From: Candidatus Parcubacteria bacterium
GTDB lineage: Bacteria; Patescibacteriota; Minisyncoccia; Phycocordibacterales; CAIZLB01
Assembly: GCA_043760135.1 (NCBI GenBank)
Contig: JAYUPL010000009.1
Coordinates: 1 to 54,184 of the forward strand
Length of the DNA: 54,184 nucleotides
Direction of reading: 5' to 3'
Of the stretch, positions 1 to 4,869 are shown piece by piece (positions within the stretch are counted from its first letter, which is position 1; the number at the start of each line of letters is the position of its first letter). A program made the position numbers and the translations under genes. Below the pieces are notes generated by a model that made no database searches, was not told where the DNA came from, and saw only the letters and a program-made list of their open reading frames with translations.

Positions 1-121
1 ATATAGTCACTACGTTCCTTATTTTATTGGAGGGAGTTGAAGTCTACGACTTCAGTACACCTTTGCTATTTTCTCAAATTCTCCGAATTCTCAAAAATAC
101 AGCAAAGCTTTTCAACTCCCG
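1..121 (-). repeat. Structured palindromic element A downstream of tmRNA, with a partial tmRNA 3'-end duplication
   Basis: tggagggagttgaa at 28-41 repeats 206-219. Outer inverted repeat gggagttgaa/ttcaactccc, inner hairpin gaagtc-tac-gacttc. Colinear with element B at 4612-4754. Confidence 0.8.
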
Positions 122-160
122 CACGAAAGTGCAACCGTGCACTTTCTCATCACCTATATA

Positions 161-192
161 GAAAAAATCACAGAGCAGGTCTGTGATTTTTC
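161..192 (-). terminator. Intrinsic terminator after tmRNA
   Basis: aaaaatcacaga/tctgtgattttt hairpin just 3' of the tmRNA end. Confidence 0.75.
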
Positions 193-199
193 TTTCAAG

Positions 200-592
200 T
201 GGAGATGGAGGGAGTTGAACCCTCGTCTATATAGGTATAACACATATATCTACGTAACATAGATATGTTTTCAAACTTCATTTATATGATTATAAATACA
301 CATCCAAACATCATACAAACTAATCTTATAATCTCGATTAGGACTCAAGATAACATCCTAACCTTGCTTTGCTATATTACACCTTATCCTCTGCACAAAG
401 CAGACAGAGGTAAGATGTCTCGCATGAGGTAGAGCTAGGCTCTAGCAAAGGCGAAAGAGTTGCTGAATCCAAAATTGGATGCAACAGCTTTAGTGTTTTT
501 AGCACATAAGGTTCCTTAAAGTTTAACGAGATTTAAGGGTACTCGGTTACGCATATGTGTTAAAGATCTATATATCGAATCCGGTCATCCCC
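200..592 (-). ncRNA. ssrA: tmRNA
   Basis: 5' end GGGGATGACCGGATTCGA and 3' end GACGAGGGTTCAACTCCCTCCATCTCCA (G3:U acceptor). Tag frame 503-435 reads AKNTKAVASNFGFSNSFAFARA*. smpB is nearby. Confidence 0.97.
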
Positions 593-668
593 GTATTCTT
601 GTAAACGAATTTACATGGTTAGTATGACATATATTAGTAAATTTGACAGCCCTGCTATAATTAGCCCT

Positions 669-1970
669 ATGACTATATATTTTAAAGAAGATCCATACTT
701 ATTTACTGAGGATTCTATTGATGGAGTGCCTTTTTATTATAAAAACATTGTCAATGCTCCATGTATACACGTACGACTTGTTTTTGATTACGGCGCTATG
801 CATGATGAGATTGGTTTTGAGGGTGCAGCCCATCTTCTGGAACATACCATGCTTAAAGGGAGTGATCTTATTGAAGATGAAAAAGCCTATCAAGAATTTT
901 CAAAAAAATATACACTCGGTACTTCAAACGCATCAACAAGTTTATACAAGTTACAACTCACTGGTAAATGTTTACCTCAACATATCGAGCATGTGCTCAA
1001 TGTTTATTTTGCGTCGATAATAAATCCTAAATTTGATCACGAAGCGGTAGAAAGTGAAAAGAAAGTTATAGTTCAAGAATTCTGGAGGTATTATACAAAC
1101 GAAACATATTTAAAATATATAAACGAGCTAAGGGTAAACAACCTATATGATTTTCCTGATTATTTGAGAACAAATAATATTATTGGGTGGGTAGATACAA
1201 TTGAAAAAAATAGTTCAGAGGATTTAAAAAAAGCTAAAGAAAAATTTCTTGTAAAAAATAACTTGAGAATTTTTGTTGCTGGAAATTTGGATAAGCTTGA
1301 AGATATCAAAAAGATAATCAAAGAAAATCTTGAAAAGATGGTCCTTGGTGAAAAGTCAGAAGCTCCAGTTGCACCAGAGACTATTCAAAAGCCAAAAGAA
1401 AATAAGTATGAAAATAAATACATAGACATTGGACTGGGGGATGAAGAGCAGGCCAGTATTGAAGCTGAAATAATATTACCTAAATTTGATTGCGAGAAAG
1501 ATCTAAAAAAGATTGCTACACAACGTCTTCTTGTCATGGTGATAAATGATTTAGTTTATGAGAAATTGAGAACAGAGAACAAACTATGTTACTCAGCAGG
1601 TGCTGGAACTGGTTCAAGGGTGACGTTTCAAATTGTGTATATTCAAAGTAAACTGAATCCAGAGTATATAGATAAATCTATATCACTCATAAAAGAAATC
1701 ATCGCTGGTGTTGATGAGGGTATATATGAAGAAAAATTTAATAAAAATAAAGAATTAATCATAAACAGATTTATTTCAAGCGAGAGGGTTACAGGAGATA
1801 TATTAGATGGGGCAGTAAACAGTTATATCAATTATGATCAGAACCTCTTACTCAACGATCTCATCGAATCTATGGAAAAAGTTACCTACCAAGACACTGT
1901 AGATTTTGCAAAAGAATATTTACCACTGGATAGGTTTGTGTTTGAAATATTGAAACCCAAAAATATTTAA
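669..1970 (+). CDS. M16 family zinc peptidase
   Basis: HLLEH (HxxEH) motif and LRTENKLCYS motif. Start moved to the ATG at 669 after TGcTATAAT. Confidence 0.9.
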   Translation: MTIYFKEDPYLFTEDSIDGVPFYYKNIVNAPCIHVRLVFDYGAMHDEIGFEGAAHLLEHTMLKGSDLIEDEKAYQEFSKKYTLGTSNASTSLYKLQLTGKCLPQHIEHVLNVYFASIINPKFDHEAVESEKKVIVQEFWRYYTNETYLKYINELRVNNLYDFPDYLRTNNIIGWVDTIEKNSSEDLKKAKEKFLVKNNLRIFVAGNLDKLEDIKKIIKENLEKMVLGEKSEAPVAPETIQKPKENKYENKYIDIGLGDEEQASIEAEIILPKFDCEKDLKKIATQRLLVMVINDLVYEKLRTENKLCYSAGAGTGSRVTFQIVYIQSKLNPEYIDKSISLIKEIIAGVDEGIYEEKFNKNKELIINRFISSERVTGDILDGAVNSYINYDQNLLLNDLIESMEKVTYQDTVDFAKEYLPLDRFVFEILKPKNI

Positions 1971-1974
1971 TAGG

Positions 1975-2418: not shown

Positions 2419-2460
2419 ATTTATATAGATAATAGCACAAATACGTGGTAATATCAGAAC

Positions 2461-4332
2461 ATGGTAAAAAACAAAAAGGAAAATAATGTGAGAGGAATAT
2501 TTGCAAAAAACATATTTGGAATAATAGTATTCTTTGTGGTCATTTTTATACTATCTAGTTATGTACAAGACGACAAGAAGGATGATCAAAACATAACTCT
2601 TTCGCAGTTGGTGAATGATATTAATGGCGAAAGAATTACTTCGATTAAAAATATCAATGACAAAATAGAGGTTTTGTATAAAGACGATAGTATTAAATTT
2701 TCAAAAAAAGAAAATGAGGCTTCTTTAACTGACACACTTTCAAATCTTGGGGTTGATAAAACAAAACTTGCCCTCACTTCAATCGAGGTTCAAGATGATA
2801 CAAGTTTTGGATATGTAATAATGAACATATTACCATTCTTGTTTCCTATAATATTATTCTTTTTAGTGATCTGGTTTTTAACTCGTGGAATGAAAGGTAT
2901 GGGTGGTGGACAGGCGTTCTCTTTTGGATCATCTCGTGCAAAACTTATGGCACCAGACGGACAAAAAGAAAAAATAACTTTTGCTGATGTTGCTGGAGCC
3001 AATGAGGCAAAACATGAACTTGAAGAGGTTGTTGATTTCCTAAAGAATCCTAAGAAGTTTGCCTCTATTGGTGCAAGAATTCCAAGAGGAATACTTTTGA
3101 TGGGTGCTCCCGGAACAGGTAAAACATTGTTGGCTCGAGCTGTGGCAGGTGAAGCAAATGTATCATTCTTTTCAATATCAGGATCAGAGTTTGTTGAGCT
3201 GTTTGTTGGTGTTGGTGCGTCTCGTGTACGCGATATGTTTAAGGTTGCTCGTGCTTCTCAACCTGCGATCATATTTATCGATGAGATCGATGCTGTGGGT
3301 CGTGTAAGAGGTGTTGGTATGGGTGGTGGAAATGATGAAAGAGAGCAAACACTTAACCAAATCTTGGTTGAAATGGATGGTTTTGAGCCATCAGATTCTG
3401 TTATTATTATGGCTGCAACTAACCGACCTGATGTCTTGGATCCTGCACTTTTGAGACCAGGACGTTTTGACAGAAGGGTAAATGTAGAATTGCCAGATAG
3501 AAAAGATAGAATTGAAATTCTTAAAATCCACGCTAAGAATAAACCTTTTGTTAAAGACATCAGACTTGAAACTGTGGCAGAAAGAACACCGGGGTTTTCA
3601 GGAGCTGATCTACACTCTGTGATGAATGAGGCGGCCATCTTGGCAGCACGTAACAATAGAAAAGAAATAACTCAAGATGATCTTGTTGTATCTATAGAAA
3701 AAGTTATGCTGGGGCCGATTCGTCAAACTCACGTGATGTCTAAAAAAGAAAAAGAGTTGACTGCCTATCATGAAGCAGGACATGCGCTTGTTGCATCAAT
3801 CCTTCCATATGCTGATCCGGTACACAAAGTTTCTGTAATCTCTAGGGGGCGTGCGATGGGCTACACTTTAAAGCTTCCAAATGAAGATAAGAGAATGCAA
3901 AGTAAATTGGAATTCTTGGATGATATCGCTGTTTCATTAGGAGGATATGTTGTTGAGAAAACTATTTTTGGTGACCTGACAACTGGTTCATCAAATGACC
4001 TTCAGGTTGCGTCAGCACTTGCTCGAGATATGGTTACTAAATACGGTATGTCTGATGCTGTTGGTCCTGTGGCACTCGAACCAGCAGGAGGACGAACTAT
4101 GTTTGGTACTGGCGTTGAGGCAAAGAATTATAGTGAGAAGACAAATGAGTTTATTGATAATGAGGTTTCAAAAATAATGAATGGTGCTTACGAAAGAGTG
4201 CTGGAAATTATTACAACTAACCGCGCTGCACTGGATGGAATATCAAAAGTTTTGGTTGAGAAGGAGACATTGGAGCAAGGGGAATATGAAGAGATTATAA
4301 GAGGTTTTGGGATTAAAGTGGAGAAGGATTAA
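2461..4332 (+). CDS. ftsH: ATP-dependent zinc metalloprotease FtsH
   Basis: Two TM segments, Walker [21 protein letters not shown] and HEAGH motifs. Confidence 0.98.
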
Positions 4333-4340
4333 GATTGATT

Positions 4341-4376
4341 AAACAAAAACACCTTTTTTACAGGGTGTTTTTGTTT
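4341..4376 (+). terminator. ftsH terminator
   Basis: aaacaaaaacacc/ggtgtttttgttt inverted repeat. Confidence 0.75.
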
Positions 4377-4611
4377 ATAATACCCTTGTCCGAGTACTGG
4401 ACTCGGTATTGATTACAATGAGGGAGCAAGGTATCAATAACCTTAAACCTCAAAGAAAGATACTATTCTACTGATTTTTTCAGCAATTAGCTTACAAAAC
4501 CAGGACCTTGAAACGGTATGTTTATTATATACCTTGTTGATGACAAAATGCAAGTGCTTATATTGGCGGAGATAATACATAGTCGCTACACTCCTTGCAT
4601 CACATGCACAA

Positions 4612-4754
4612 AATACAGTCATTCCATTCCTTATTTTGCGGAGGAGAAGGGATTCGAACATTACATGTTCAGTACAGGTTTTCCATTTACTCAAAGCAAG
4701 CTTTTCGAAAATATGGAAGAACCTTTTCGAATCCCAAAAATCCTACGGATTTTT
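4612..4754 (-). repeat. Structured palindromic element B downstream of the Ser-like tRNA, with a 25-bp tRNA 3'-end duplication
   Basis: tttgcggaggagaagggattcgaac at 4635-4659 equals 4776-4800. Outer inverted repeat gggattcgaa/ttcgaatccc, inner hairpin gaacat-tac-atgttc. Confidence 0.85.
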
Positions 4755-4779
4755 TAACTCTAGGTTATTATGGCGTTTG

Positions 4780-4869
4780 CGGAGGAGAAGGGATTCGAAC
4801 CCTCGAGGACCGTTTCAAGACCCTGGCCAGGTATAAGCTGGTTACCTTAAACCTCTCAGTCACTCCTCC
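4780..4869 (-). tRNA. Atypical tRNA with a serine-type class II body and a UAU (Ile) anticodon
   Basis: Acceptor GGAGGAG/CTCCTCC with G73, anticodon loop CT-TAT-AC, 21-nt variable arm (AGGGTC/GGTCCT), T arm GAGGG-TTCGAAT-CCCTT. Confidence 0.88.

Follow-up and report, generated by a model that had tools for sequence, protein, structure and literature searches.

Elements of the CTXphi type (integrative mobile elements exploiting Xer, IMEX) carry inverted segments that, as a single strand, fold into a duplex copy of their chromosomal target and are recombined by the host Xer enzymes without a dedicated integrase, and the attC sites of integrons have at the base of their stem an R box with the consensus RYYYAAC ... 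GTTRRRY. Palindrome-associated transposable elements (PATEs) of the IS200/IS605 type and REPINs are short, non-autonomous, palindromic single-strand elements, with hairpins that are recognised by their structure and a short pairing with the target or cleavage site, and the primer-binding site of retroviruses and long terminal repeat (LTR) elements is a stretch complementary to the 3' part of a specific tRNA, and the tRNA that is used can template it anew. To our knowledge, few mobile elements are known from the tiny genomes of the Patescibacteria. Islands in tRNA and transfer-messenger RNA (tmRNA) genes, including the tycheposons, are described, in the portions of text at hand, as integrating into the 3' part of the gene, leaving a regenerated gene and a displaced fragment, pushing older insertions outward and decaying to integrase-less remnants (PMC4383910; 10.1101/2020.12.28.424599). 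Here we analyse a 54,184-nucleotide stretch of DNA from Candidatus Parcubacteria bacterium (GenBank assembly GCA_043760135.1, contig JAYUPL010000009.1, hereafter the window), in which two small palindromic elements, A and B, stand behind a tmRNA gene and a tRNA gene. With a probability that we put at about 0.45, A and B are cargo-less members of a non-autonomous, cassette-like family of inserts in the T-loops of tRNA and tmRNA genes in one order of Patescibacteria, and the module common to the family is a folded recombination site.

Results

Elements A and B and their host genes

The window is contig C9 of a genome (G000) of 756 kb in 31 contigs that is 93% complete; its tmRNA and tRNA genes were called with ARAGORN and Rfam. 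Read on the minus strand, A (28-120) and B (4638-4735) have the same order of parts, namely, a 10-nt arm, AA, the nested hairpin 1, TGTACT, the 6-bp hairpin 2 with its GTA triloop, and a copy of the 3' end of the neighbouring gene (Table 1). The colinearity of the two elements, on which the original prediction was founded, is therefore borne out, as is its observation that each begins with the reverse complement of the host T-arm, which is exact over 10 nt in both. The prediction had set the elements at 1-121 and 4612-4754; both exist, within the narrower bounds given above. Its 14-bp direct repeat in A stands, and its 25-bp repeat in B shrinks to an exact repeat of 22 bp. The sequence TTCAGTACA (plus strand) has exact occurrences in the window only at 51-59 and 4668-4676, and no Rfam family was found on 1-121 or 4612-4754, either at gathering scores or at E <= 1.

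The two elements exemplify two layouts. A is of type 2, marked by an additional hairpin (H0), and B is of type 1, in which a conserved 20-nt trailer and a terminator stand directly before the arm. A is truncated by the start of the window, and its remainder is on contig C4; C9 and C4 overlap end to end within A (window 1-113; G000:C4 1-92). Related bins often end in modules, several matches lying less than 220 nt from a contig end; these repeats break assemblies. The host tRNA of B has G73 and adjoins an ordinary tRNA-Ile(UAU) at 5035-5108; it would read AUA as serine if seryl-tRNA synthetase charges it. In two relatives (G004 and G014), ftsH is followed directly by the ordinary tRNA-Ile(tat), and the long-arm tRNA, B and about 280 nt of noncoding DNA, with a tail unit at its element-proximal end, are all missing.

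Table 1. Features of elements A and B and of their surroundings in the window
Feature	Position	Strand	Basis and remarks
Start of the tail unit after A	1-27	-	Continues on C4 into a 5'-truncated, putative uracil-DNA-glycosylase-like frame
Direct copy of the tmRNA 3' region in A, 14 bp	28-41	-	Identical to 206-219; overlaps the final 3 nt of hairpin 2
Core of A	39-112	-	Hairpin 1, 61-107; linker TGTACT, 54-59; hairpin 2 with GTA triloop, 39-53; model R1, 94.8 bits
5' arm of A, 10 nt	111-120	-	Exact reverse complement of the tmRNA T-loop and the start of its 3' T-stem
H0 hairpin of A (type-2 layout)	125-146	-	9-bp stem, 4-nt loop
Partial complement (6/7) of the tmRNA acceptor 3' strand, beside H0	147-154	-	Sequence comparison
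Terminator-like hairpin with A-tract and T-tract, between the tmRNA 3' end and A	162-191	-	Read from the sequence; layout recurs at other copies
tmRNA gene, host of A	197-592	-	ARAGORN; Rfam RF00023, 126.9 bits; T-loop and 3' end at about 199-222
Tail unit after B, ~70 nt	about 4565-4637	-	Begins right after the copied tRNA end; the acceptor 3' end is then briefly repeated
Direct copy of the tRNA 3' end in B, 22 bp	4638-4659	-	Identical to 4779-4800
Core of B	4656-4726	-	Hairpin 1, 4677-4723; linker TGTACT, 4671-4676; hairpin 2 with GTA triloop, 4656-4670; model R1, 75.1 bits
5' arm of B, 10 nt	4726-4735	-	Exact reverse complement of the host tRNA T-loop and the start of its 3' T-stem
Type-1 trailer and terminator hairpin (4736-4755) of B	4736-4778	-	Homologous to trailers at the tRNA-Trp, Arg(gcg) and Ser(gga) copies
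Host tRNA of B, 91 nt, long variable arm, Ser-like acceptor stem, anticodon UAU	4779-4869	-	ARAGORN; Rfam tRNA, 44.3 bits

The elements are insertions in the T-loop region

At tRNA-Trp, an empty site can be set beside a filled one. In genome G002 the gene ends in CCA, followed by a distinctive flank, and in G014 this CCA and flank stand after hairpin 2, which shows that the 3' "copy" is the displaced original end of the gene and not, as had been predicted, sequence of the element itself. The active tRNA-Trp gene of G014 has a new end without CCA, followed by the type-1 trailer, the terminator and the module, whose arm fits the T-stem of G014's own gene; the insert begins at about position 56 of the tRNA and ends with hairpin 2, the last C of which is position 56. 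(In G004, tRNA-Trp has no module, and its downstream gene is in common with G000.) We conclude with high confidence that there is a true insertion in the T-loop region at tRNA-Trp, a comparison of filled and empty sites thus confirming that the family inserts there. By analogy with this pair, we read the 14-bp copy in A as the displaced original end of the tmRNA gene.

Other loci carry more than one unit or a cargo. In G005, tRNA-His has two identical units, 319 nt apart, and in G010 two different units stand in tandem at tRNA-Glu and again at tRNA-Lys. Forms in which genes precede the module include one of 0.9 kb with a single open reading frame (ORF) in G000, one of 1.7 kb behind the tmRNA gene in G004, two of 3.2 and 4.2 kb at tRNA-Trp and one of 16 kb at tRNA-Ser(gct) in G004. 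On the metagenome contig L211, tRNA-Glu(ctc) is followed by two small ORFs, a module, two more small ORFs and another module, with all of the ORFs co-directional with the tRNA and none of them encoding a recombinase. The tandem and cargo-bearing forms fit repeated integration. Contigs from four DNA runs of one study, three of which may be the source of the present DNA, contain joints between the repeat copies, one contig passing over 121-197 and another over 4541-4628, in each case across unread letters.

These observations also bear on a more conventional explanation, that of ordinary site-specific integration between duplexes. The module would then be the conserved attP arm region of tRNA islands, with the integrase provided by larger relatives or phages; the small copies would be deletion remnants or integrase-less satellites, the hairpins would be terminators, insulators or protein-binding palindromes, and the arm would be a second half-site, a mirror image of the one in the tRNA, which a dimeric integrase requires for symmetry. 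A regenerated gene with a displaced 3' fragment is the classic signature of a tRNA island, at least in the portion of PMC4383910 at hand, and we find it here, both at the tRNA-Trp pair, for which the empty site exists in a relative, and as the 14- and 22-bp repeats of the window. Tandem arrays and remnants, too, are seen in tycheposons, according to the available part of 10.1101/2020.12.28.424599. Nevertheless, we judge this explanation unlikely. The whole type-1 unit, with its trailer and terminator, recurs in conserved form at several different tRNAs, which implies that the small form itself propagates, and the arm lies ~75 nt from the crossover, too far for a single dimer site.

The family is widespread within one order

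To find further copies, we used a covariance model (R1) built from six cores. The arms were left out of the model, so that the match of each arm to its neighbour could be tested independently. R1 was run on 60 other genomes of the same order, 17 of them of the same genus, and, with stricter filters, on a phylum-wide sample of 150 further genomes, only one of which belongs to the order. A set of 79 stretches gave 84 matches, 81 of them distinct. A second, independent sample of metagenome contigs gave 55 matches from 80 loci, 37 of them with a tRNA gene no more than 700 nt away.

Further copies had been anticipated, and they are numerous. G000 has about 12 among its 40 tRNA and tmRNA genes, made up of 10 R1 matches (E <= 6.5e-4) and 2 degenerate copies. 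Scans for the motif and for T-arms brought out these copies as well. Apart from A and B, those at tRNA-Trp, Ser(act), Leu(caa), Arg(gcg) and Ser(gga) are intact or nearly so; the Phe copy has an insertion in hairpin 2 and its arm is degenerate, the Ser(tga) and Val(tac) copies are degenerate, and the Lys(ttt) copy is truncated. At tRNA-Arg(cct) the copy lies 960 nt downstream, with one ORF of 226 amino acids in between. R1 matches were found in 40 of the 60 other genomes of the order (1 to 27 per positive genome), including 16 of the 17 congeners; copy number within the genus ranges from 0 to 18, G006 being the genome without any. None of the 150 genomes of the more strictly filtered phylum-wide sample, with its single member of the order, gave a match. 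Relatives identified through the FtsH protein of the window bear names such as Candidatus Taylorbacteria, Paceibacteria and Parcubacteria, so that the placement in Patescibacteria made in the original prediction stands. In the genome with 27 copies (G060; L095-L097 and L030), a second GTACT-like stretch follows the modelled hairpin 2 and precedes the tRNA copy, suggesting a variant architecture.

[quoted passage not shown] A full-text search of the literature, covering main texts, turned up no description of such elements. The motif reported from Methanopyrus is different from the present module, judging by the available part of PMC5217627.

The fold is conserved on the tRNA-sense strand

Both A and B fold as a three-way junction. 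Folded as RNA, their z scores are -5.05 (A) and -4.88 (B) for the minus strand and -3.02 and -2.42 for the plus strand; folded as DNA, they are -5.25 and -4.34 against -4.39 and -3.51. The prediction that the stems differ in sequence and yet keep their pairing holds across the family, since standard pairs occupy 97.1% of cells in the 81 distinct copies, compared with 75.3% in shuffles and 33-58% with slid partners, and 20 of the 25 pairs show two-sided changes. Such covariation is not needed by protein-binding sites in duplex DNA, which argues against the duplex-integration explanation. The tRNA-sense strand has 73 G.T and 16 A.C pairs, 13 of the latter in one column, and this excess of G.T over A.C indicates that the selected fold is that of the tRNA-sense strand. 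While the stem bases vary, the unpaired AAA, the GA/GA internal loop, TGTACT and GTA are 90-100% conserved; of the conserved parts listed in the original prediction, TGTACT and the triloop are thus confirmed, and the tail proved to be a separate unit, as described below. This pattern of conserved loops suits a protein that reads structure on single-stranded DNA or RNA, and not a duplex binding site.

Such a fold could also act as RNA, in the service of the host or of the insert, either as a mimic of the acceptor/T-minihelix of the neighbouring tRNA (a decoy, a processing substrate or a self-primer, made by read-through or as a transcript of its own) or as an antisense to the tRNA 3' end that terminates at a bidirectional terminator. 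The strand-specific fold, with its excess of G.U and the low z scores of the sense RNA, is what this would lead one to expect. Moreover, the type-2 left arm begins like the 5' acceptor strand of a tRNA, producing an acceptor-like stem that ends at the discriminator and sometimes at CCA, and a promoter-like site at 4537-4564 (plus strand) points into B on the antisense strand. We consider an RNA role improbable all the same. A terminator always stands between the tRNA or cargo and the module (the terminator scan missed AT-rich hairpins), the type-1 gap is too short for a promoter, and sigma-70-like promoter sites are at chance level, with 17 found and 18.4 expected. The T-loop bases are paired, so that the elbow of a tRNA is not mimicked; in the antisense form, the 73 G.T pairs would become A.C mismatches. 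Finally, Rfam holds no match, and the module varies in presence among congeners, one of which has no copy, unlike a housekeeping RNA. Two other candidates were dropped: a small plus-strand ORF, because the frames of A and B have only three residues in common and the stem changes are compensatory, and a hammerhead-type ribozyme, because the junction strands do not fit its core and there is no Rfam match.

Arms match the adjacent tRNA gene

A tRNA or tmRNA gene lies on the same strand 42-652 nt upstream in 73 of the 84 matches, and these genes represent 26 anticodon types plus tmRNA. The other 11 consist of four cargo-bearing copies (16, 1.7, 3.2 and 4.2 kb), four with less than 220 nt of contig upstream and three for which no tRNA was found. 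The last three (L030, L038 and L081) and metagenome loci L216, L228 and L255 have no tRNA in the 1.5-13.7 kb of upstream sequence examined.

Arm matching was assessed in 72 cases with a recognisable T-loop, the control being 4,876 pairings with the tRNAs of other elements. The arm agrees with the complement of tRNA positions 54-65 at 10 or more of 12 positions in 60 of the 72 cases and at all 12 in 27. For the tRNA-specific heptamer (59-65), the match is 7/7 in 30 of 72 and at least 6/7 in 51 of 72, compared with 0.3% and 6.8% of the mismatched pairs. The metagenome sample, which adds Pro, Gly, Tyr, Gln(ctg) and further Arg types as hosts, replicated this result (7/7 in 20 of 37 and at least 6/7 in 31 of 37; 0.2% and 8.6% of mismatched pairs). 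The claim that the arms follow the adjacent tRNA has therefore been upheld twice. In type-2 copies, the arm is preceded by H0, a covarying hairpin of 8-9 bp whose stem sequence varies among copies with the pairing kept, and upstream of H0 is a complement of tRNA positions 66-72 (at least 6/7 in 28 of 72 and 7/7 in 16 of 72; controls, 5.9% and 0.4%). The left side of the module is accordingly an inverted copy of the whole 3' half of the gene (54-73), divided by H0.

The arm and the displaced copy match the tRNA equally well (8.7 and 8.6 of 10), as would be expected of neutral relics under duplex integration, and selection on the arm cannot be claimed. The possibility that the arm is the better preserved of the two was dropped after a paired test (the arm was better in 23 cases and the copy in 31, with 18 ties; p 0.6). 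A tendency for the displaced copy to keep a CCA that the new end lacks gave a weak signal (10 versus 6 of 37), and the spectrum of arm-tRNA mismatches (G.T 15, A.C 5, other 49) was not decisive.

Identical cores carry different arms

The nearest relative of a given hairpin 1 and linker sits at another type of tRNA in 43 of 53 cases. In G007 and G014, a 72-nt core that is identical in every base recurs at three tRNA genes, Ser(tga), Trp and Leu(taa), and the arms, trailers and H0 hairpins differ among them. Similarly, A and the tRNA-Ser(gct) copy of G004 have H0 and the tail in common and closely similar cores, with compensatory differences in arm and copy. These cases imply that arms are specific to the locus and are not inherited with the core; differing arms need either an exchange or conversion of cores between loci or arms templated by the target. 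The original prediction that target choice is encoded in the element itself is not supported on this point, and it is doubtful that the arm is a heritable guide.

Locus-specific arms on identical cores would be explained if an unrecognised kind of enzyme made staggered cuts, nicking one strand in the T-loop and the other at about position 74. The resulting 19-nt target-site duplication would regenerate any tRNA, and the arm would arise by strand switching or fold-back synthesis on the displaced flap. In this way, more than 30 tRNA types and tmRNA could be targeted and left intact without pre-adaptation, the repeat would end at about position 73/74, and the order of the arm parts (the complement of 66-72 or 73, then that of 54-65) is the one expected from copying of a flap. 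Set against this are the presence of H0 inside the arm and the conserved type-1 trailer, both of which it leaves unexplained, and the lack of Cas1, a reverse transcriptase (RT) or an HUH protein in G000 as a candidate enzyme. We also know of no system that makes such an inverted copy of its target, and on balance we regard staggered cutting as quite improbable.

Candidate enzymes

A recombinase or HUH protein had been expected to co-occur with the elements. G000 does have one tyrosine recombinase, an Xer-like gene at C14:12629-13558 that adjoins no array and scores 122 bits with the integron-integrase model (cut-off, 265), and it has no HUH protein: Y1 HUH (PF01797), IS110, RT, TnpB and Cas1 all lacked a match at E <= 0.01 in G000, and RAYT was also not found there. 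Since G000 is 93% complete, the absence of an enzyme is not proven. Nor is there an integrase gene in A, B, the other small copies, the cargo of K, G014-Trp, L211 and L221 or the four module-nearest ORFs of L216.

G000 also carries a large serine recombinase gene, on C30, and such a gene lies inside two of the cargo-bearing cases, G004 (16 kb) and G007 (3.2 kb), as duplex integration would have it. The island in G007, however, has its own, different direct repeats and stands between two whole copies of the small element. Across 61 genomes, 26 have both the module and a serine recombinase, 15 the module only, 15 the recombinase only and 5 neither. There is no association, contrary to duplex integration by this enzyme; the module-only genomes include those with 27, 18 and 12 copies, the richest genomes being without a serine recombinase. 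The large serine recombinase was dropped as the module enzyme for this reason. In the window, a 357-amino-acid frame at 13042-14115 (minus strand) resembles a serine recombinase, with Recombinase and zinc-ribbon domains and without the catalytic Resolvase domain; it closes a series of small ORFs on the minus strand (11047-14115) that lies downstream of tRNA-Ser(gct) (10955-11046), and the syntenic 16-kb island of G004 has a full version of 440 amino acids.

The tail unit and other observations nearby

The original prediction had counted the tail as part of the element. It is a separate unit, present at only 3 of the ~12 G000 copies (with a 41-nt spacer from the element at one of them); within the genus, 7 of 18 genomes have it, at 12 places altogether. 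Directly behind an intact tRNA-Ser(tga), with no module, it stands in G004 and G011. The tail enters at the very 3' end of Ser-type tRNA and tmRNA sequences, between short repeats of the acceptor 3' end, with further instances at G000:C5 about 53587-53650, L113 and L118. A frame at G000:C4 about 95-425 (plus strand), which starts in or beside the tail, resembles in translation the C-terminal part of a uracil-DNA glycosylase and lacks the N-terminal part.

A third palindromic unit, of ~40 nt, recurs in either orientation, both within other elements and immediately behind tRNA 3' ends. It lies within hairpin 1 of the Ser(act) copy (G000:C5 about 53750-53790) and, in the opposite orientation, of the Ser(gga) copy (G000:C27 about 1290-1330), and it directly follows tRNA-Leu(caa) on C7 and tRNA-Val(tac) on C14. 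A tRNA-Ser at G000:C5 53902-53989 (minus strand) has the anticodon ACU, with A at position 34, and like-called tRNAs bear modules in relatives (L018, L034 and L097). Elsewhere in the window, a group I intron (39192-39388, plus strand; Rfam, 64.6 bits) lies within the 23S rRNA gene at 36347-39691. On a 2-kb contig, G000:C28 1091-1234, a 70-nt tRNA-Gly(tcc) called by ARAGORN abuts a tRNA with a four-base anticodon (atta).

Discussion

In our reading, each insert brings with it a fresh 3' end for the tRNA (starting at about position 56), which is usually followed by a trailer and a terminator and sometimes by 1-16 kb of genes, and its far end is the conserved module, consisting of the left arm, hairpin 1, TGTACT and hairpin 2. 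The original tRNA 3' end is thereby pushed downstream, where it abuts hairpin 2. On the tRNA-sense strand, the left arm (the complement of 54-65 and, in type 2, also of 66-73, with H0 in between) pairs with the adjoining tRNA 3' segment, and the folded strand is then a junction whose long stem has the duplex sequence of the tRNA gene itself. We propose that, used in this folded, single-stranded form, like an integron attC or the CTXphi attP, the module would recombine with a crossover at the 5' edge of the T-loop, through an enzyme that is presumably supplied in trans. Taken by itself, the folded single-strand mechanism has in our estimation a chance of somewhere between one in three and one in two. 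The original prediction had the folded strand rebuild a duplex att site, and two parts of that proposal have gained ground, the strand-specific fold and a type-2 left arm that would rebuild the duplex of 54-73; the use of a single strand, the crossover point, the enzyme and the way in which arms come to fit each tRNA are what we infer.

Several observations weigh against the proposal. The alignment behind the G.T excess was fitted to an RNA model, and such a model favours G.U; the strand asymmetry and the conserved loops would suit an RNA equally well. Type-1 copies such as B carry an arm of 10-12 bp only. Simple inheritance of a self-contained element would not lead one to expect identical cores combined with differing arms, trailers and H0 hairpins. 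Neither a circular nor an excised form turned up in the data, which are assembled contigs only, and in viral contigs the four pattern matches were all chance matches in coding DNA. As to the enzyme, the 93%-complete G000 has no integron integrase above the cut-off and none of the Y1 HUH, IS110, RT, TnpB or Cas1 proteins, and the serine recombinases are not associated with the module in the 61 genomes.

The puzzle is how one 72-nt core gains arms for more than 30 different tRNAs. A bolder version of the proposal is a tRNA-anchored cassette system in which the T-loop of any tRNA or tmRNA is an entry site and the stem of the folded single strand is re-templated from the target at each insertion, by the Xer-like enzyme or by one that we have failed to recognise. 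Re-templating would explain the identical cores with tRNA-specific arms, and the module would then amount to a programmable integration site that matches itself to its target and repairs whichever gene it enters, although we think it unlikely that the system goes so far.

About one-quarter of the tRNA genes of G000, and hundreds of sites across the order, bear this one structured insert. If our folded-strand proposal is correct, the module would be the first integron- or CTX-like site aimed at tRNA genes generally and a natural integration site that matches its target by pairing with a copy of that target. Even on plainer explanations, the family accounts for contig breaks and many tRNA 3' fragments in these bins, and the module marks small gene cassettes.

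How, then, does the family compare with known systems? MITEs have family-wide terminal inverted repeats and a short target-site duplication that a DDE transposase makes; here the arms vary with the tRNA, and the flanking repeat is a 14-22-nt tRNA end. From PATEs and REPINs the module differs in that its complementarity is of 10-20 nt and specific to the tRNA and in that the insert duplicates or regenerates its target, and no Y1 or RAYT gene was found in G000. Unlike the LTR primer-binding site, the arm stops short of the CCA and is split by a hairpin, and no RT was found in G000.

With tRNA islands and tycheposons, as far as the available texts describe them, the family has in common entry at the 3' part of the gene, regeneration, stacking and remnants. 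It differs in units as small as ~165 bp, in a conserved three-way junction that covaries and in the target being copied in inverted form; the word "hairpin" does not occur in the available text of 10.1101/2020.12.28.424599. The small copies have no integrase inside them, serine recombinases being present in two cargo cases.

CTXphi-type IMEX are alike in that the folded strand rebuilds the target, and an Xer-like enzyme is the only tyrosine recombinase in G000. Their target is dif, whereas that of the module is a tRNA T-loop, all resolved module copies standing behind tRNA or tmRNA genes, and no phage genes accompany the module.

Integron cassettes differ in entering at attI, whereas the entry site of the module is the T-loop of many tRNA and tmRNA genes, and the insert must in addition rebuild an essential gene. 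No intI stands beside the arrays, and no integron integrase reaches the cut-off in G000; in place of an R box, the base of the module stem consists of tRNA-specific T-loop and T-stem sequence that varies among copies. The likenesses are otherwise extensive. In both, a small cargo without a promoter, or no cargo at all, ends in an imperfect palindrome of 60-140 nt whose fold is conserved and not its sequence, the selected fold belongs to one strand and keeps its unpaired bases, and cassettes stack in tandem beside a fixed entry site, as seen in the short co-directional cargoes of L211, each followed by a module, and in the tandem empty units. In both, too, the part of the site that lies beyond the crossover derives from the neighbour.

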